Shown one piece after another: positions 3,598 to 52,198 of a stretch of DNA of 64,000 nt (position 1 is its first letter; each line of letters begins with the position of its first letter). The stretch comes from a virus: positions 3,466-67,465 of IMG/VR virus record IMGVR_UViG_3300009509_000706; one strand, 5' to 3'. Below the pieces are notes generated by a model that saw only the letters and a list, made by a program, of their open reading frames with translations, had not been told where the DNA came from and made no database searches. Position numbers and translations under genes: made by a program.

Positions 3598-4355
3598 AAG
3601 CAAAGCAACGAGGCCAGGGCCTAGTTGAATTTGCTCTTATATTGCCAGTGTTACTTGTTATGCTGGTGACGATATTTGAGGGCGCAAAATTGCTTGGCTC
3701 ACAGATGCGGGTTGACAATGAAGCGCGGGAGATAGCACGCCTTGCAGCTAGGGGCACTGTGCCAGAAGATATGATTACTTATTCTGGCGACATGTTGTTG
3801 GAAGGCTCTATGTTGCGCCTTTCATACGTGACAGTTAATTTAGAATCAACGGGCGAATTTTCAAGCAAGCTTGATGAGTATTTCCCCTTTGGTTTACTCA
3901 AAGCGCCAAGAATAGATAGCGTGCTATTCATTGCTGATCAAAAAGCAATGCTTAATACATTCGTCTCTATTGATTGGTCATCTGCTTTTACAGATACAGC
4001 CAATATTGAAAATTATGATATTGAGGTTAGTAGGGGCAATCAACATAATACATGGTTGACCGCCACGAAAGAAACAGCGGCATTATTTTTGGTAGAGTAT
4101 AATGACTTGAAATCTGAGATGCTTTCTGTGTTTGTCCAGGCAAATTATTTGGGTCATCCATCCTCGCGGGTATATCTTGGGCGTTATGAGGTCAATTTCA
4201 ACATGGAATTGATAAACCAGCCTTATAGAGTTATTGTGGTCGAGATAGAACAACCCTATACTTCTTTTACTGGGCTGCTTGACTTTATCATGCCCAAGAT
4301 GCTCTATAGTAAAGCTGAAATGAGAGTGCTGCCAATAAGGGGCCTGACAGAATGA
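3594..4355 (+). CDS. TadE-family pseudopilin-like protein
   Basis: N-terminus KQRG|QGLVEFALILPVLL with G-1, E+5 and a hydrophobic helix, then AREIARLAA. Confidence 0.8.
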   Translation: MKAKQRGQGLVEFALILPVLLVMLVTIFEGAKLLGSQMRVDNEAREIARLAARGTVPEDMITYSGDMLLEGSMLRLSYVTVNLESTGEFSSKLDEYFPFGLLKAPRIDSVLFIADQKAMLNTFVSIDWSSAFTDTANIENYDIEVSRGNQHNTWLTATKETAALFLVEYNDLKSEMLSVFVQANYLGHPSSRVYLGRYEVNFNMELINQPYRVIVVEIEQPYTSFTGLLDFIMPKMLYSKAEMRVLPIRGLTE

Positions 4356-5449
4356 GACAAGTTAAATTCCTTGATGTCACAGAACCAAAGGCTATGATAC
4401 AAGACGCGCTTGCGGCAATGTCTAAGGTTATCGAATCTGGGCAGTTCATTTCTGGAAAATATGTTGCCACTTTTGAGGAAAAATGGGCAGAAATATGTGG
4501 AGCACAATATTGTGTGGCCTGTGGGAGTGGCGGCGCAGCCTTAATATTGGCCCTCAAAGCACTTGATTTGCCCATCGGTTCGCGGGTCATAGTCCCCGCC
4601 TTATCTTTTGCTGCTACGGCTATGGCTGTACTAGAGGCGGGTTACATCCCGCGTTATTGTGACGTTGATTCAAATGGCCTGATCGATGTTCATAAAATGA
4701 CAGAGTTGGCCTTGCATGAAAGAGCCGTTGCAGTTATTCCCGTCCATCTCTATGGACAGTTAGTAAATATGAAACCTATTGTAGAGGTTGCTAAACAATT
4801 TGGGATGCAAGTTATTGAGGATGCTGCCCAGGCTCATTGTGCAATGAAAAGAGTACATGGTACAATGGCCTGCTTTTCATTTTATCCCGCGAAGAATCTT
4901 GGTGCTTTCGGTGAAGCTGGTGCAATCGTGACCGATCACAGTGATTTGGCATATAAAGCACGCCAAATTGCCAATTATGGCGTAGCCCCTGGCAGTAAGT
5001 ATGAGCACAAGATATTAGGTAGTAATTTAAGAATGGATGAAATTCAAGCCGCTATTTTATACGCCAAGATGGGCCATCTGGATTATTGCCTTGCCAAGAG
5101 GAAAGAAGTTGCTTTGCGCTATGCGGCAAACGGTGTCCATTCTATTGCCCGTGCCAAAACAAATGTATGGCATTTGTACCCTGTTAAGTGTGAACAGCCC
5201 GCCAAAGTCCGTGATGAATTAGGCAGCTGGGGCATAGCCACAGGCTTGCACTATCCGATTATTTTGCCGGAGCTTGAGGCTTTACGCGGCAACTTTGGCT
5301 CAAATAGGCATAACTATAAAGGCTCGTGGCCTATCGCAAAGGCAATAGCAGAGCATCATATTACTTTGCCGATGGGGCCACATTTGAGCAATGATGATAT
5401 TGATTATATATCGGAGGGGTTTTTAAATGCCTGTTCCAAGAATATTTAA
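4352..5449 (+). CDS. DegT/DnrJ/EryC1/StrS PLP aminotransferase (WbpE/WlbC-like)
   Basis: PVHLYGQ, IEDAAQAH, FSFYPAKNLGAFGEAG, GSNLRMDEIQAA. Confidence 0.95.
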   Translation: MRQVKFLDVTEPKAMIQDALAAMSKVIESGQFISGKYVATFEEKWAEICGAQYCVACGSGGAALILALKALDLPIGSRVIVPALSFAATAMAVLEAGYIPRYCDVDSNGLIDVHKMTELALHERAVAVIPVHLYGQLVNMKPIVEVAKQFGMQVIEDAAQAHCAMKRVHGTMACFSFYPAKNLGAFGEAGAIVTDHSDLAYKARQIANYGVAPGSKYEHKILGSNLRMDEIQAAILYAKMGHLDYCLAKRKEVALRYAANGVHSIARAKTNVWHLYPVKCEQPAKVRDELGSWGIATGLHYPIILPELEALRGNFGSNRHNYKGSWPIAKAIAEHHITLPMGPHLSNDDIDYISEGFLNACSKNI

Positions 5450-25403: not shown

Positions 25404-25666
25404 GAATAACTGAGGCCGAAGTATTTGCCGAAATCGCAGCACTGTTATCGGCTGGCAAAGAGCGGGAACTTGGAACATTTACCACAGCAGAGCTTGCAGA
25501 ATATTTAGGCTGCTGTGCACCAACGGCACTGGTCAGAATCAAAAAACTTCTGGCCGCTGGAATAATTGAGAATGCACGTATACCTATTACCGATCTAGTA
25601 GGTAGGCAAACAACGACATTTGGATTCAAGTACATCGGCAAGTCAGAGCCGCCTATTGACGACTAG
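25385..25666 (+). CDS. Winged-helix DNA-binding protein
   Basis: FTTAELAEYLGC...IKKLLAAGII. Confidence 0.7.
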   Translation: MATKRMRITEAEVFAEIAALLSAGKERELGTFTTAELAEYLGCCAPTALVRIKKLLAAGIIENARIPITDLVGRQTTTFGFKYIGKSEPPIDD

Positions 25667-25684
25667 GCTATAATATGCTATAAT
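25656..25684 (+). promoter_or_regulatory. Sigma70-type promoter for sRNA-2
   Basis: TTGACG-17-TATAAT with TG; the -35 lies in the last codons of the upstream gene. Confidence 0.8.
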
Positions 25685-25689
25685 GAGAT

Positions 25690-25756
25690 CGTAGACCTTT
25701 CCCTCTCTTTCGCTTGGCGCTGGTAGCACTATCCCGCTACCAGCGCCTTTTGTTTT
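25690..25756 (+). ncRNA. Candidate sRNA-2 (anti-SD tract plus terminator)
   Basis: TTTCCCTCTCTT tract, then a perfect 12-bp stem GGCGCTGGTAGC/GCTACCAGCGCC and a T run. Confidence 0.6.
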
Positions 25757-25769
25757 GTGAAATTGGGGC

Positions 25770-25798
25770 TTGACAAATTCTGCATTTGGGTGTATAAT
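25770..25798 (+). promoter_or_regulatory. Consensus sigma70 promoter
   Basis: TTGACA-17-TATAAT; near copy of the minus-strand promoter at 44249-44277. Confidence 0.85.
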
Positions 25799-25833
25799 AG
25801 GTTATAATATATACAAGAGAGGGAAATAACAAA

Positions 25834-27130: not shown

Positions 27131-28108
27131 ATGAACATCGGACTTGACGTAGGTTATTCAGCGACGAAAGCAGTCTCAGGGGAACGACGGGTAAATCTGC
27201 CGTCTATCGTCGGCACGCCAGACCGGGCGCGGTTTTCTATGGACGGTACAGATAATATGATTCTGGCTATGCCAGACGGCAAGGCTTTTCAGGTGGGGCA
27301 AGCCGCCATTCTACAGAGCCGCTTTGTTGACCGGCAAGAGGATCGGGGATGGATCGAGAGCGCGGCCTACCATGCCTTGATGCTGGCCGCACTCACAGAA
27401 TTGACACCAGCGACGGTTGATGCCGTTGTCGTCTCTGGCCTGCCGGTAGCCTTCTACGGCGACAAGGACGTACTGCGGAATCGTCTGCTGGGCGAGCACC
27501 GTGTAACCCGTGAGGGACGACGCGCGCAGCTTTTCCGCGTCACCGAGGCGCGTGTCATCCCCCAGCCCTTCGGCACGCTCTTGGCGGCGGCGCTGGACAA
27601 TAGCGGGCGCATCGCAGACCAGACACTTGCCGCTGGCTCCGTAGGCGTAATTGATTGCGGGGGTAAAACCACCAATTTGCTCTCTGTCCACCGACTGGCC
27701 GAAATCAGCCACAAGACGGCCAGCGTCAATCTGGGGGCCTGGGATGTGGCGCGGGCGGTTGGCAATTGGCTGGCCGACAACTGTCCGAATCTCGACTTGC
27801 GAGACCACCAATTGATGGACGCTATCATTGCTCGTGAAGTCACTTACTATGGCGAGTCGGTTGACCTGAGCGAAATCGTTTCCGAGACATTGCAACCTAT
27901 GGCCGACCAGGTTATTGCTCAGGCGGGCCAGTTGTGGAATGGGGCGGCTGGGCTGGCAGCTATTCTCGTGACTGGTGGCGGGGCGCTCATGTTGGGACCT
28001 AGCATCAAGGCCCACTTCCGGCACGCCAGAGTAGTTGACGATCCAGTATTCGCTAATGCACTGGGCTACTGGAAGTTTGCGCAGCGCCTCTCTAATAATC
28101 AATCATAA
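27131..28108 (+). CDS. parM: ParM/StbA-family actin-like ATPase
   Basis: GLDVGYSATK, VSGLP, IPQPFG, VIDCGGKTTN, VTGGGA, FANALGY. Confidence 0.92.
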   Translation: MNIGLDVGYSATKAVSGERRVNLPSIVGTPDRARFSMDGTDNMILAMPDGKAFQVGQAAILQSRFVDRQEDRGWIESAAYHALMLAALTELTPATVDAVVVSGLPVAFYGDKDVLRNRLLGEHRVTREGRRAQLFRVTEARVIPQPFGTLLAAALDNSGRIADQTLAAGSVGVIDCGGKTTNLLSVHRLAEISHKTASVNLGAWDVARAVGNWLADNCPNLDLRDHQLMDAIIAREVTYYGESVDLSEIVSETLQPMADQVIAQAGQLWNGAAGLAAILVTGGGALMLGPSIKAHFRHARVVDDPVFANALGYWKFAQRLSNNQS

Positions 28109-41640: not shown

Positions 41641-41837
41641 AAACAAAAGCCCTAATGTGCTATCACCTGAGCGGTATCGGCGGCAAAGGTTTTTTGTGCT
41701 ATACGTGACGCTCCGTATAGCCCGTTACCGCCCATGTGATAGTCCACAAGGGCTTTTCCTTACCTTTGCCTAACTGTTAAAATAGGGGCGTCACTCCCTA
41801 CTAACTCCATTCTACCACGTTTCGCCAGAATTGTCAA
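41641..41837 (-). ncRNA. C4/CI-like antisense switch A
   Basis: TTGACA-17-TAGAAT; long stem 41645-41757; boxes GUGACGC and GGCAAAGGU complementary to enclosed sequences. Confidence 0.7.
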
Positions 41838-44076
41838 GCGGAATACTGTCATTTGCAGACTGCGCTTCCGCCCAGGCAAACAAATCGAGGGAATTTACAT
41901 CGCGCTCGACCATTTGCAGATTCTTGACGGCTACGTTGAAATAACTTTGCTTCAATTCTATGCCGATCCCCTTGCGTCCCATCTTGACGGCCTGGTAAAT
42001 CTCTGAGCCAATCCCGGCGAAGGGCGAAAGGATCGTTTCGCCAGGATTGCTCCAAAGCGCGATACAGCGTTCAATTGTACCAAGTTGCAGGGGGCAGATA
42101 TGCTTGTCATCATCCTCGGCGCGGGCAGTCGTATATTGTAGGGTATCAGTTTCTCTGATTCCCCACCAAATCGGATGCGCCCATTCGATCCATTGATCCC
42201 GTGTTAACTCTCCGTTGGCTACGGGATTGATCGGCGTTTGATTCTCGCCAGGTTTTTTGAAAATCAGGATATAATCGCCAATCGCTGGCCTTGACCACGA
42301 GCTGTCTTTTTCCATTTGGACAAAAAGAAGCGCCTTGCTATGCGTGCGAATGGCCTGTGCTTGCGGATTCTTATCTATCGTGACTCTGCCGTGATAAATC
42401 CATCCGCGATCCTCAAAGGCAGCGATGACTTTGCCAGGGAAATCTTTAAGGCCAATATAGCCATCCTTGCTGAGCAGAGCAGGTACATCAGCAGTATGGA
42501 CGGCGCAGATACGTCCAGGTCGCGTTACCCGCAGTAAATGATCAATGATATAGCCAAAGTGGATAAAGAAATCATCCGCATTGGCAGAATTACCCAAGTC
42601 ACGCTCCGTAGGACTATATGTATACAAATCCATAAAAGGCGGACTGAATACGCTAAAATCAATGCTGTCAGTCTTGATTTCTGCCAGACGCTCTACAGAA
42701 TCACCCAGCATCAAAGTCCAATCCTTGCCCTTGATGGTATCAACGTTATATGTTTCCCCACCATCATTTTGTTCCGCCAGCTCATCTCTTTCAAAAGCCT
42801 GTACATTTTCGATGAGTTTAGTTGCCATAGTATTTGCCTGCTCCTCTTTTCTCATAATATTAGTGTAAATCTCTTGTTCTACATCTCCGAGTACAATGTG
42901 AACATTGACCTCTTCTTTTTGCCCGAACCTGTAACAACGACGGATGGCCTGATAGTATGCTTCCCAGCTATCACTCAAGCCGACGAATATCATATTGTGG
43001 CAATTCTGGAAATTCATACCGAAGCCAGCGATCTTCGTTTTAGTAACCAAGACTCTTATAGTGCCATTCTGGAAGTTTTCTAACGCCTCAATCTTCGCAT
43101 CAAGGCTATCACTGCCTTGTACCTCTACAGCATCATGTATGGCTTTAGCCAGCGCCGCACTTTCATCATTCAGACCGCACCAAACGATCCATTGTTCGCT
43201 AGAATTATTGACGATTTCAGCAGCAGCAGAGACTCTATCTCCTATGGTTTCGCGTCTTATTTGTCGCCTATGCCCTATGCCCTTGAGACCAGTAAAAAAC
43301 AACTGGTCTTCTGGGACATAATCTGTGGGGACGAATAGTGAAAAGATATTTAGTGGGGGAAGTACGAATCCGTCATCGTCATAGCCGAGATCGGACGGCT
43401 TGCGTACTGACATGCCCCAACTGGCGAGCCAACGGTAAAATGCTTCTTCAGCATGGCCGCGCAATCGCCAGCCTTTGTCATCATGTACGAAAAAGGCGGC
43501 AAGCATATCGGCTCTGGTCATCACGCCTAGAAATTCGGCATGGTTGGCAATCTCTGCAATGTCATTCGGGGCTGGCGTTGCTGTACAACAGAGTCTTAGT
43601 TGCACATCAGAAAACATATCCGTTAGCTTGCGCCGCGTCTTGCCGTCAAGCCCTTTCAAAATCGAGCTTTCATCTAATATTACCGCGCCGAAGGCGGCAG
43701 GATTAAATCGCTCGATCATTTCATAATTGGTTATATAGATTTGCGATGGGCTATTATCCGCCTGTTCCTGGCTGCGTACATAATAGACTTGCAGATCAAT
43801 TTTCTGCGCCTCTCTTACCGTTTGTTTGGCTACTGACAAGGGGGCAATAATCAATGTTCTTTTGCCAGATAACCTGGCCCATTCCAGTTGCATGAATGTC
43901 TTCCCCAGGCCAGTATCAGCAAATATCGCCGCCCGCCCCTTGCGCAGCGCCCAGATAGTCAAATCCTTTTGGAAGTCAAAAAGTAGCCTGTGTACTTCAG
44001 ATTGTGGCGCAGAAATGCCGCACGTTTTTGCTTTGATACATTTTGTTTTCAAGAAGGCTTGATAATTCATGCTCAT
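41812..44076 (-). CDS. SNF2-like helicase fused to an N4/N6 DNA methyltransferase
   Basis: DTGLGKT, LDESS, TATPAPN, QAIRRCYRFG; VFSPPF and LSPFAGIGS. Confidence 0.9.
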   Translation of the reverse strand: MSMNYQAFLKTKCIKAKTCGISAPQSEVHRLLFDFQKDLTIWALRKGRAAIFADTGLGKTFMQLEWARLSGKRTLIIAPLSVAKQTVREAQKIDLQVYYVRSQEQADNSPSQIYITNYEMIERFNPAAFGAVILDESSILKGLDGKTRRKLTDMFSDVQLRLCCTATPAPNDIAEIANHAEFLGVMTRADMLAAFFVHDDKGWRLRGHAEEAFYRWLASWGMSVRKPSDLGYDDDGFVLPPLNIFSLFVPTDYVPEDQLFFTGLKGIGHRRQIRRETIGDRVSAAAEIVNNSSEQWIVWCGLNDESAALAKAIHDAVEVQGSDSLDAKIEALENFQNGTIRVLVTKTKIAGFGMNFQNCHNMIFVGLSDSWEAYYQAIRRCYRFGQKEEVNVHIVLGDVEQEIYTNIMRKEEQANTMATKLIENVQAFERDELAEQNDGGETYNVDTIKGKDWTLMLGDSVERLAEIKTDSIDFSVFSPPFMDLYTYSPTERDLGNSANADDFFIHFGYIIDHLLRVTRPGRICAVHTADVPALLSKDGYIGLKDFPGKVIAAFEDRGWIYHGRVTIDKNPQAQAIRTHSKALLFVQMEKDSSWSRPAIGDYILIFKKPGENQTPINPVANGELTRDQWIEWAHPIWWGIRETDTLQYTTARAEDDDKHICPLQLGTIERCIALWSNPGETILSPFAGIGSEIYQAVKMGRKGIGIELKQSYFNVAVKNLQMVERDVNSLDLFAWAEAQSANDSIPLDNSGETW

Positions 44077-44104
44077 TTCTCCATTCTTATATTACTCTAG
44101 TTGT

Positions 44105-44277
44105 AAAATAAAAGGCCCTGATCCCCATGCCCGTTGCCCGCTTTGTTGTTAAAATCCACTCTCGCTGCCAGGCAAGAATGCGGCAAAACGGGCCGGGGGA
44201 TCAAGGCCCTCGGCTAAAACCTATATTCATTCTTGCCTGGCATTCTCTATTATACACCCAAACACAAAATCTGTCAA
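44105..44277 (-). ncRNA. Antisense/attenuator switch C upstream of the helicase-MTase
   Basis: TTGACA-17-TATAAT; 15-nt leader box exactly complementary to a sequence inside the long stem 44113-44210, which ends in a U run. Confidence 0.65.
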
Positions 44278-44427
44278 GCCCCAATCTGTGCTGCATATTC
44301 ACGGCGCAACGCCTCAAGAATCCTGGTCGCTGTGCTTGCCCCGCAAGCCTCAACCTCGGACAGTGCGGCCTCAAGCTCTACCAGGTCAAAGTCATCTGGA
44401 ATGAGCAATGTTAGAATCTCGCCCATA

Positions 44428-45039
44428 TTACTCCCAATTCACCCAGGCCCTAGTAGCCTCAATAATGGTGTCAATCTGTTTCAGCGCATTACCATTGCAC
44501 CAAATCTCTAGCCGCCCTTCTTCGTAATAAACAATGCCCTTTGCTCTGCCGTCATTGGGCGGCGGCAACTGCGGCTTGTGAATCATCTTGCGTAAAGTGC
44601 GAGCCGACAATCCTTCTTGCTCTGCCTTGTCAAGCCACTCCATTTGCTGTTCTACTGGAAGTGGGGCGACGGCCCGATGGTGGTCAAAGGTCAGAGTTTC
44701 CAGCCGCCTTACTTCCGGTGCTACTTTGCGGGCAACCCATTGGACATTGGCCGCTGTTCCGCTTGAATAGTCAGAAGCCTCTAGCGCCTGAGTATATGCT
44801 TCTCCGAATCTGCCCTGCATATAGTTCAGCAAATCTCCAATAGCAAGCTGTATAATATTGTGAGCAGCCTTAAGTGTTGTTACAGCATTGTTGCAAGTAT
44901 CAAAGTCTGGTTTTCCTTCGATTTCAAGGCCAGCCTTGCCGAAGCGAAAAGGGCCGACGCGGATGAGGTAAGAATCGTTGCTTATAGCAGAATCACTTTT
45001 AGATAGTACGATTTCGCCGTTGTTGTCTATGATGTCCAC
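44428..45039 (-). CDS. LmbU-like putative DNA-binding protein
   Basis: LAIGDLL....FGEAY, LTFDHHRAVA, WLDKAEQEGLSARTLR. Confidence 0.55.
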   Translation of the reverse strand: MDIIDNNGEIVLSKSDSAISNDSYLIRVGPFRFGKAGLEIEGKPDFDTCNNAVTTLKAAHNIIQLAIGDLLNYMQGRFGEAYTQALEASDYSSGTAANVQWVARKVAPEVRRLETLTFDHHRAVAPLPVEQQMEWLDKAEQEGLSARTLRKMIHKPQLPPPNDGRAKGIVYYEEGRLEIWCNGNALKQIDTIIEATRAWVNWE

Positions 45040-45053
45040 AATGCAAGCTCCTA

Positions 45054-45443
45054 TTAGTGTTCAAAGTCAAGTTCACAGTTTGGACAAAAACATCCTAGGT
45101 CATCGCATTCACACTGTGCACTACATTTAGGACAGAATACAACTGGTTTTGGCTCAAAATAAGCTCGTTCATAATTAGTGCAATCTGGGCAATCCAATTT
45201 ACCATCGCACAATTCCAACTTTCGGCCACAAGCAGAGCAAGATTTCCAGCCTGGATTTTGTCGCCACATTCTGAGCCAATAAGGGGCGACCTGCTCCCAT
45301 CCTGTTTTTTGGGCCAATGCAAAGCCTAGCCGCATCCATCGCTCGGCTTCTGGATTAAATTGTCTATAGGCAGCGATAGCAGCTTCAAGCAATTCTTGCG
45401 GCGATGCTTCTTTTAAATCTCGATATTCATCACTCATAGCCAA
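45054..45443 (-). CDS. Cys-rich hypothetical protein
   Basis: Several CxxC motifs. Confidence 0.55.
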   Translation of the reverse strand: MAMSDEYRDLKEASPQELLEAAIAAYRQFNPEAERWMRLGFALAQKTGWEQVAPYWLRMWRQNPGWKSCSACGRKLELCDGKLDCPDCTNYERAYFEPKPVVFCPKCSAQCECDDLGCFCPNCELDFEH

Positions 45444-51027: not shown

Positions 51028-51123
51028 GACGATGACGGGTTTTGTTTCACAGACTTTTTCAGAGTTACCTGCCCCAGAGCTACATAGACAATGGCTGCCT
51101 ATCGTGTTTGTAGAGAGAGAATA

Positions 51124-51582
51124 ATGATTCTCCCCGATACTGCTCTAATAGACTGGGCCTCACATGGCGGCTTGACACCATTCGATGCTGGTTGCGTCAA
51201 TCCTGCTAGTATTGACCTGAGACTGGGCGAGGAATATATCGAGTTAGTGACTGGCAAGCGGCTTTATGGCGATATCGTCCTTCGGCCCGGAACTGCAATC
51301 CTGGCGACTACGGTTGAGTTTGTAAGAATGCCAGCTTGGGCAGCAGGCGTCTTGTATCTCAAGTCAAGCCTTGCGCGAATGGGTCTCGACCACGCCCTGG
51401 CCGGCTGGATCGACCCTGGATTTTGCGGGGAGTTGACGATGGAATTGCACGCGCACAGAGAGATCGTGCTAACGGCAGGGCAGCGGATCGTCCAACTCGT
51501 TCTGATGCAAATGACTAATGAACCTGAAGCGGTATATAATGGCCGCTACCAGGGACAAATGGGGCCTACCTGTGCAAGATAA
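51124..51582 (+). CDS. dcd: dCTP deaminase
   Basis: VNPASIDLRLG, KSSLARMG, AGWIDPGFCGELTMEL, YNGRYQGQ. Confidence 0.92.
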   Translation: MILPDTALIDWASHGGLTPFDAGCVNPASIDLRLGEEYIELVTGKRLYGDIVLRPGTAILATTVEFVRMPAWAAGVLYLKSSLARMGLDHALAGWIDPGFCGELTMELHAHREIVLTAGQRIVQLVLMQMTNEPEAVYNGRYQGQMGPTCAR

Positions 51583-52198
51583 GATTCTAACCTATCGCAC
51601 CATCGGCGAAGCGTGGCTAAATTGCTGCCAGCTTTGTCTTGAGCGAGGCCGAACCTACACTATCCAGCGTGGTTCTTATGTAGGCCAGCAGCGCAAACAG
51701 CTTGACTTCTTGGCTTTTATTATTTCCCATCCTGAGACCCGCCCACTTGGCATAGAGTATCGGGGACAACAGATAAGCCGTGACGATGCGATCCTGGCCT
51801 ATTTCCAAGATTATCTCATTTCGCCTTACTGCCCGCCAAACACTCAGTACACCTATGGGCAACGGATCGAGCCGCAACTTGAGATGGTATGCGAAATGCT
51901 CAGGCAGACGCCCGACACGAATCAGGCAGTCATCGAAGTCGGCAAGCCCAGCGATGTTTGGCTAGACGACCCGCCGTGTTTGCGCCTTATTAGCTTCAAG
52001 GCGTTGCCCACCGAAGGCTTGCAGATGACAACATTCTGGCGGTCATGGGATTTGTGCGCCGGGTTGCCGATGAACTTGGGCGGCTTGCAATTGCTGCTTG
52101 AGTTCGTGGCAGAATGGGCAGGATTGAAACCTGGCCGCCAGGTGTGTGTGAGCGATGGGGCGCACTTGTATGATCATAGTTGGGGGCTTTTTAAATAA
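51572..52198 (+). CDS. thyA: Thymidylate synthase (short archaeal-like type)
   Basis: YTYGQR, DPPCLR, RSWDL..GLPMN, GAHLY. Confidence 0.85.
   Translation: MQDKILTYRTIGEAWLNCCQLCLERGRTYTIQRGSYVGQQRKQLDFLAFIISHPETRPLGIEYRGQQISRDDAILAYFQDYLISPYCPPNTQYTYGQRIEPQLEMVCEMLRQTPDTNQAVIEVGKPSDVWLDDPPCLRLISFKALPTEGLQMTTFWRSWDLCAGLPMNLGGLQLLLEFVAEWAGLKPGRQVCVSDGAHLYDHSWGLFK

Follow-up and report, generated by a model that had tools for sequence, protein, structure and literature searches.

Two interleaved helices in the leader of a phage helicase-methylase gene: a candidate transcription attenuator

The locus and its leader

The DNA analysed here (the window, 64,000 nucleotides) comprises bases 3466-67465 of virus record IMGVR_UViG_3300009509_000706, which is 67,465 bases long and has direct terminal repeats. 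Structural, packaging and replication genes are found in the window, including those for terminase, tape measure, a DnaB-like helicase, primase, a replication initiator, RecT and a partition protein. The partition protein gene (27131-28108, plus strand; phrog_691, E = 4.8e-52) belongs to an operon driven by a near-copy of the promoter described below, and given this protein, the phage may have a plasmid-like state. A dCTP deaminase-like gene is adjacent to a thymidylate-synthase-like gene, and a separate site holds an aminotransferase-like gene (51091-52198 and 4352-5449, plus strand). In combination with the helicase-methylase fusion introduced next, these genes hint at DNA base modification.

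The leader resides in a minus-strand block of early and replication genes, upstream of a gene that encodes an SNF2/DEAD-type helicase fused to an N6/N4 DNA methylase (Pfam PF00176, PF00271 and PF01555; PHROG phrog_16 and phrog_67). This gene starts at 44076 or at an in-frame ATG at 44070, about 30 nucleotides beyond the U-tract of the leader. ORFs in 44274-45443 have no Pfam or PHROG match. The features of the locus, in transcript order, are as follows.

44274-44426: upstream ORF of 50 amino acids, whose stop codon (44276-44274) lies inside the -35 element of the promoter
44277-44249, minus strand: sigma-70 consensus promoter with 12 of 12 matches (-35 at 44277-44272, 17-nucleotide spacer, -10 at 44254-44249)
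44228-44242, minus strand: box 1, the 5'-terminal 15 nucleotides of the predicted transcript and 5' strand of the putative antiterminator helix
44211-44227, minus strand: A/U-rich spacer between box 1 and 2L that can pair weakly with the 3' part of box 1 in a local hairpin
44196-44211, minus strand: 2L, the left (5') arm of the long-range terminator stem
44166-44180, minus strand: box 3, the exact complement of box 1, situated in the insert of the terminator
44127-44165, minus strand: segment offering alternative partners for box 3 and its neighbours, which form the inner stems of the rod
44112-44126, minus strand: 2R, the right (3') arm of the terminator stem
44105-44113, minus strand: U-tract directly after the stem, with 8 U in 9 positions, the predicted release site
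41812-44076, minus strand: helicase-methylase gene

The -10 hexamer ends 6 nucleotides before box 1, which places box 1 at the predicted transcript start, and the leader predicted from this consensus promoter is about 140 nucleotides long. The promoter had been noted as nearly duplicated at 25762-25800, and this is the case: a 29-nucleotide pattern has two matches in the window and none in shuffles, and the two copies share 90% identity over 39 nucleotides. The twin (25770-25798, plus strand) leads directly to a ribosome-binding site, without a leader of this kind.

Directly upstream of the twin promoter is a unit resembling a small RNA gene (25656-25757, plus strand; z = -5.2), which consists of an 11-of-12 promoter with a TG extension, a C/U-rich unstructured stretch of about 30 nucleotides, and a 12-pair terminator with a U-tract. 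The best duplexes predicted for this unit (-31 kcal/mol) are inside the range for shuffled queries (-25 to -34), and neither the leader at 44 kb nor a repeated translation-start motif described at the end of this text is among its top targets.

The order of elements on the transcript is box 1, 2L, box 3, 2R and U-tract, and it therefore defines two interleaved helices. The sequence-only reading that drew attention to this locus had described 44242-44228 as exactly complementary to 44180-44166. We find that the box 1 15-mer has exactly one perfect reverse complement, at 44180-44166, both in the window and in the whole 67,465-base record. Its other matches carry two or three mismatches and are at chance level (eight in all, versus 3.08 +/- 1.95 in shuffles). 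As that reading also held, the complement is located inside a long stem ending at a terminal tract: the outer stem has 16 pairs, encloses box 3, and runs directly into the U-tract at 44113-44105. Each element described at the outset was confirmed in its place, and the observation is real and far beyond chance. A scan of the window for the same architecture returned 15- and 15-pair helices at this leader only; in the control, at a cut-off of 9 and 9 pairs, 30 shuffled windows gave a mean of 1.1 sites.

Like a canonical intrinsic (Rho-independent) terminator, the long-range stem is G+C-rich (13 to 16 base pairs) and is followed immediately by a U-tract. In contrast to a canonical terminator, 69 nucleotides separate its arms, the last pair of the folded stem encloses 79 nucleotides, and the insert continues the rod when folded. 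The leader thus lacks the short loop of a compact terminator hairpin, and a consensus terminator scan (loops of 3 to 8 nucleotides) does not call the site because the insert is 79 nucleotides long. The loops of the two helices measure 17, 15 and 39 nucleotides in the window copy. On steric grounds, the loop lengths would leave room for a pseudoknot containing both helices, except in one relative (L024, discussed below).

Folding of the leader transcript

The minimum free energy fold of 44244-44100 is -64.8 kcal/mol (z = -5.86), and 0 of 200 shuffled sequences were as stable. This full-length optimum is the terminator rod, versus -45.8 kcal/mol for the best fold that keeps box 1 paired with box 3. 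In the terminator fold, the first nine bases of box 3 pair with approximately 44165-44158, and the apical loop consists of its remaining six bases (44171-44166). Because their strands alternate along the transcript, the two helices are mutually exclusive in any nested fold.

In equilibrium folds of growing transcripts, the mean probability of box 1:box 3 pairs is 0.99 at lengths of 81 to 113 nucleotides, drops to 0.58 at 117 and to 0.11 at 121, and the terminator stem dominates from length 125. The optimum of a transcript truncated at 118 nucleotides is already without the 5' pairing. This early loss occurs because 44165-44127 offers box 3 and its neighbours other partners. A direct path from the 5'-paired fold to the rod would cross a barrier of 39.9 kcal/mol, which is an upper estimate because the nested-structure model bars any terminator pair beside any 5' pair.

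These calculations lend support to the earlier proposal that the two pairings are competing terminator and antiterminator folds, since the helices interleave, the 5' pairing is predicted to form early, and the rod is predicted at full length. At equilibrium, 5' pairing is predicted before the last segment is made and the terminator form afterwards.

The 5' segment alone is largely unpaired, and does not form the two conserved stem-loops that, in HK022 put-type RNAs, directly follow the promoter and act on downstream terminators. We therefore rejected a put-type antiterminator RNA, for which there is also no Rfam match. Adding 60 to 200 nucleotides of upstream RNA changed the 5' pairing little in four of five leaders and had no consistent effect.

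Recurrence in other phages and variation among strains

We fetched 80 viral and 80 metagenome loci around relatives of the helicase-methylase, and 24 loci around relatives of the primase or replication initiator. Homologues of the leader sequence were not detected: blastn against the 80 viral loci gave chance matches only, the terminator arm had no exact match in IMG/VR, and the sole result of blastn against a phage database was a short match within the helicase gene. Inspection by eye nevertheless revealed the same layout upstream of the helicase gene in two relatives, L003 (71% protein identity) and L024 (58%). In both, there is a sigma-70 promoter, and the complement of the transcript's first bases lies between the two arms of a long-range stem that has a U-tract. 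Every base of these leaders differs from that of the window.

A strict scan covered 185 sequences (964,667 nucleotides, both strands) and demanded one helix of 10 or more pairs beside a U-tract, a second, interleaved helix of 10 or more pairs, and a minimum of 5 G-C pairs per helix. It returned 11 sites, 10 of them unique, and seven block shuffles gave 1 to 4 sites each. We classified sites as promoter-adjacent when a sigma-70-like promoter (10 to 12 of 12 matches) has its -10 element ending 3 to 8 nucleotides before box 1. Six sites of the strict scan are promoter-adjacent, versus none in the seven shuffles; the scan itself imposed the U-tract and both helices, which leaves promoter adjacency, strand and gene context as the independent features. 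All six leaders have the orientation of the coding strand and immediately precede a replication-region gene, as listed here.

Window, L003 and L024: helicase-methylase
L037: replication initiator (PF09524, phrog_3729)
L042: primosomal-like protein (phrog_9327), with 2R overlapping the ribosome-binding site of the gene
L194: product that starts like a GIY-YIG nuclease, from a translation read by eye

Among the other sites, one lies antisense inside the helicase gene of a contig that was listed twice (L016 and L128), and is probably due to chance. L171 has a promoter about 40 nucleotides further upstream, L173 has no recognisable promoter, and L193 is not promoter-adjacent.

Folding was repeated on eight leaders (the six promoter-adjacent ones, L173 and L171). 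In all eight, the full-length optimum is the terminator form, which is better by 4.9 to 19.7 kcal/mol than the best 5'-paired fold. The mean probability of the 5' pairing after box 3 and before 2R is 0.89 to 0.99 throughout, and direct-path barriers from the 5'-paired to the terminator fold are 21 to 47 kcal/mol. Helices in the relatives include G-U pairs. Leader sequences from different phages are not alignable. Nonetheless, both helices have been maintained in evolution in the six promoter-adjacent cases, whose sequences are unrelated, and this recurrence adds to the support for competing folds. What the analysis shows directly is the pair of helices, the order of their strands, their calculated energies and the fact that they recur in unrelated sequences.

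These relatives bear on whether the unit is instead a stand-alone small RNA gene, whose product would be a structured RNA of roughly 135 nucleotides, possibly a pseudoknot, with incidental read-through. A strong promoter, a very stable fold (the z of -5.86 given above) and a terminator-like 3' end are all properties of such genes, and the window loops of 15 to 39 nucleotides sterically permit both helices. However, in L024 only 2 nucleotides separate box 3 from 2R, and the 5' helix can be extended to 13+8 pairs, 5 nucleotides from 2L, and with these spacings the full helices cannot coexist. More generally, a second helix of 15 to 22 pairs within a closed loop would need threading. The unit has no Rfam family, invariably sits immediately upstream of a gene and in the same orientation, and overlaps that gene's ribosome-binding site in L042, all of which makes a small RNA gene a highly doubtful explanation.

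The module is uncommon. It precedes the helicase gene in only 2 of the 160 fetched relatives (L003 and L024), for which 70 viral upstream regions were inspected and all 160 loci were scanned, and the closest relative (L083, with a helicase 86% identical and the same small ORF upstream) has a short spacer without promoter or leader. This rare and sporadic occurrence, together with its absence in L083, implies that the module is dispensable and cassette-like.

Two wider searches were dropped. An architecture scan based on duplexfold accepted far too many sites, and relaxing the helix scan gave no enrichment in the 24 extra loci (13 sites, versus 3 to 12 in shuffles). Two relatives carry other structures at the corresponding place. 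In L080 (1316-1500), a promoter-like site is followed, immediately upstream of the helicase gene, by a hairpin of 23 pairs and an 8-U tract. No clear complement of the 5' end is apparent there, and the sequence identifies this as a putative terminator-only version of the leader. In L082 (1128-1312), dense direct and inverted copies of an 11-nucleotide motif occur upstream of the helicase gene of a distant relative; this array looks like iterons or an origin.

No RNA run was listed among the sequencing runs that carry this stretch, and DNA runs with the phage include some from sediment habitats. Natural variants were read from DNA contigs of four runs, representing related strains. Positions 44229-44242 of box 1 and both terminator arms carry no substitution in any covering contig, and the last base of box 1 (44228) is missing in one contig. 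Variable positions are found in the start region (44243-44245), the spacer (44216-44225) and the promoter spacer (44256-44269). In one variant, present in runs X2 and X3, box 3 differs at three positions. The changes at 44171 and 44176 turn G-C into G-U pairs, and the change at 44178 produces an A.C mismatch, in contigs too short to show a matching change in box 1.

The same contigs are relevant to a DNA-level explanation, in which the 15-base-pair inverted repeats flank a 47-base-pair segment containing one arm, and inversion of this segment destroys the terminator. Perfect inverted repeats do bracket 2L as required for such an element. Yet contigs of the four runs contain no strand-changing joint, bearing in mind that contigs drop rare forms, and no recombinase was recognised among the neighbours scanned. 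To our knowledge, invertible segments are all far longer than 47 to 70 base pairs. Moreover, the repeats form RNA helices with G-U pairs in the relatives, a property relevant only in RNA, and we find an invertible element scarcely credible.

Variation in the promoter spacer also bears on an explanation modelled on lambda Q and the PR'-tR' arrangement, namely a constitutive terminator overcome by a processive antiterminator that is loaded at the promoter, with the 5' pairing being secondary. The combination of a strong promoter, a leader of 100 to 200 nucleotides and a strong terminator before a gene block fits this logic, as do two further promoter-leader-rod units downstream with a repeated promoter type. 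The varying promoter spacer does not fit, and the conserved 5' complementarity would be left unexplained. No antiterminator protein was recognised by Pfam or PHROG among the neighbour ORFs of 44274-45443, which is weak evidence, and overall this arrangement appears very improbable.

As a separate observation, some variant contigs (runs X3, X5 and X6) have the same promoter or leader end joined to other flanking sequence, in the case of the promoter also on its downstream side. In one contig of run X5 the 3' end of the leader is joined to a different gene start, and other variant contigs diverge just upstream of the promoter. These joints suggest that promoter and leader move as cassettes.

Candidate mechanism and known systems

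On balance, the leader is probably a cis-acting transcription attenuator of the helicase-methylase gene, in which the transcript's own 5' end serves as the antiterminator. In its favour are the interleaved order of perfect or near-perfect helices, the energetics of all eight leaders, the recurrence without sequence similarity, the replication-gene context, and the constancy of box 1 (44229-44242) and the arms among variants. According to this model, host polymerase would start at the consensus promoter, and box 1 would stay mostly unpaired until, about 65 nucleotides later, box 3 is transcribed. The two boxes would then zip into a 15-pair helix that locks 2L in its loop. When 2R and the U-tract emerge, the long-range stem would be too late to close, and read-through into the gene would yield an mRNA with a base-paired 5' end. 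Should box 1 be unavailable when box 3 emerges, the rod would form instead, presenting a G+C-rich basal stem followed by the U-tract, and polymerase would be expected to stop at about 44105-44113 and release an RNA of roughly 135 nucleotides. The terminator would be blocked by the closed loop around 2L and not by sharing of a strand, as a helix of 15 to 22 pairs with a polymerase-held strand would need threading or melting of the first helix. We infer from the folding models that the rod terminates, that the 5' pairing prevents termination, and that something modulates the choice between them.

The predicted default outcome by these calculations is read-through. This counts against an attenuator, given that nothing was found that switches read-through off, and it is hard to see why a terminator without any use would be kept. 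The sporadic occurrence of the module, the A.C mismatch in the box 3 variant and the failure of the consensus terminator scan to call the site also count against it. The same prediction, made for all eight leaders, is compatible with an unregulated structured 5' UTR, in which the 5' pairing always forms and there is no condition-dependent termination. The pairing could bury the 5' end and thereby affect mRNA stability, or neutralise a stem that is kept for processing, translation or insulation. 5'-terminal stem-loops are known to stabilise bacterial mRNAs, as in the ompA leader. No effector, antisense promoter or trans partner was found, upstream RNA of 60 to 200 nucleotides alters the 5' pairing little in four of five leaders, and the close relative L083 does without the module, in agreement with an unregulated UTR. 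However, such a UTR explains neither why a G+C-rich stem and U-tract are kept beside the 5' pairing in unrelated sequences, nor why all eight leaders have the terminator form as their global optimum, and we regard it as rather unlikely.

If the leader is an attenuator, the nature of its signal is constrained by the comparison of phages. As the boxes have no sequence in common between phages, sensing by a conserved protein or of a metabolite seems unlikely, and we favour an RNA-RNA or kinetic mechanism in which the element probably brings its own partner. A leaderless AUG at the predicted 5' end occurs only in the window and L003, that is, in two of the five leaders inspected, so ribosome capture is no general explanation.

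The sequence-only reading had envisaged an RNA acting in trans on the box, and this part of it found no support. A second complement of box 1 is absent from the 67-kb record, no antisense promoter was detected, and the small-RNA-like unit at 25656-25757 shows no complementarity to the leader above background. A gathering-threshold Rfam search of the window returned 0 families, and a permissive search of 44050-44300 returned only microRNA and scaRNA hairpins at 16 to 22 bits, versus cut-offs of 75 to 100. Membership in the P4 CI or C4-type RNA family was rejected, as there is no Rfam match.

P4 immunity is, by analogy, the nearest functional counterpart of the proposed attenuator. In P4, replication genes are blocked by premature termination, and an RNA processed from the leader pairs with complementary leader segments (PMC4825925). 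As in P4 immunity (CI RNA, seqA and seqC), an untranslated leader is transcribed from a constitutive promoter before replication genes, and complementary segments are found inside the leader of the replication operon. The differences are that the present leader has one complementary pair versus three segments in P4, that it has no Rfam match, and that its cis pairing is predicted to prevent intrinsic termination, whereas pairing by the processed P4 RNA causes termination.

This precedent raises another alternative, in which the leader RNA is its own antisense regulator. Read-through transcripts would use the 5' pairing in cis, whereas leader RNA set free by occasional termination would pair in trans with nascent box 1, prevent the pairing in cis and force termination. 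Build-up of the RNA would shut the replication genes, providing a timer, copy-number control or immunity. The element would then be a one-piece self-antisense immunity or copy-control device, with the leader both target and regulator and acting on transcripts of the same phage only. Boxes that are wholly different between phages within a layout that is kept are expected of a self-partnered specificity determinant, and the partition protein (phrog_691) makes a plasmid-like state conceivable. Displayed nucleation sites are also predicted: in the window, L003 and L024 (three of five leaders), the 3' part of box 3 (five or six bases) lies in a 6-nucleotide hairpin loop with an unpaired probability of about 1.0, and the first bases of box 1 are unpaired in the rod with a probability of 0.8 to 1.0. 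A loop and a free complementary end constitute the geometry used by antisense RNAs to nucleate pairing.

On the other hand, L037 and L042 do not display box 3 in this manner, and the partner in cis has a large advantage in local concentration. When the nascent 5' end and the released RNA were folded together with RNAcofold, a model that cannot represent loop-tail pairing, the result was no better than for shuffled 5' ends. Premature termination by an RNA from the same leader has a precedent in P4 (PMC4825925), but pairing there promotes termination directly, whereas the cis pairing here is predicted to prevent it. We consider self-antisense control unlikely. If true, the boxes would be fast-diverging specificity (incompatibility) determinants of phage replication modules, and leaders of this type would amount to a minimal P4-like immunity system that has spread among uncultivated phages.

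Returning to the cis-acting attenuator, attenuation by alternative RNA folds is classical, and several known systems share parts of the proposed logic. In plasmids pT181 and pIP501, a 5'-proximal leader segment prevents a terminator before the rep gene from forming, and blocking this segment leads to termination. The present leader resembles these plasmids in that a 5' segment would prevent the terminator unless blocked. Unlike in these plasmids, its antiterminator shares no strand with the terminator but is interleaved with it and pairs into the insert, and none of the eight leaders has an antisense promoter with at least 10 of 12 matches (the best sites have 8 to 9 of 12, at inconsistent positions). 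A countertranscript of the pT181 and pIP501 type was rejected for this reason.

The use of a transcript's first bases as an antiterminator also has parallels. In Bacillus subtilis pyrG, the first transcribed bases are the antiterminator and pair with a downstream terminator element. Abortive transcripts of the T7 phi10 promoter likewise cause antitermination by the very first transcribed bases (PMC2952870). In both systems, short G-rich 5' ends pair with the 5' arm of the terminator, whereas here a box of 10 to 15 nucleotides pairs with the insert, and no reiterative start sequence is evident. The leader also resembles PeSL cassettes of T4-type phages, as a small cassette of promoter and structure in varied gene contexts. 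In PeSLs the stem-loop precedes the promoter, whereas here a long two-state leader comes after it.

The layout was not described in the open-access literature searched. What appears to be new is a putative antiterminator formed by the extreme 5' end, which pairs into the insert of a split long-range terminator and would exclude it by topology. If it works as predicted, this arrangement would be a compact, sequence-programmable gate on phage replication genes, and perhaps a natural template for orthogonal synthetic attenuators.

The gene block around the leader contains two more promoter-leader units (41838-41622 and 40067-39848, minus strand), which may be the other "switches" listed by the sequence-only reading. 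Each begins with a repeated promoter type (three copies, extended -10) followed by a 180-nucleotide leader, whose long rod ends in a U-tract just before a ribosome-binding site (-70.8 kcal/mol, z = -6.4, and -73.5 kcal/mol, z = -5.3, respectively). The 5' ends of both leaders form their own hairpins and have weak complementarity (6 to 7 nucleotides) to the interior of the rod. Finally, a translation-start motif of about 35 nucleotides precedes four successive small genes (at about 41660-41625, 39895-39850, 39505-39462 and 38930-38897, minus strand), and comprises a U-rich tract, a purine-rich Shine-Dalgarno sequence and ATG. From its repetition, the motif could be a shared translational operator or enhancer.
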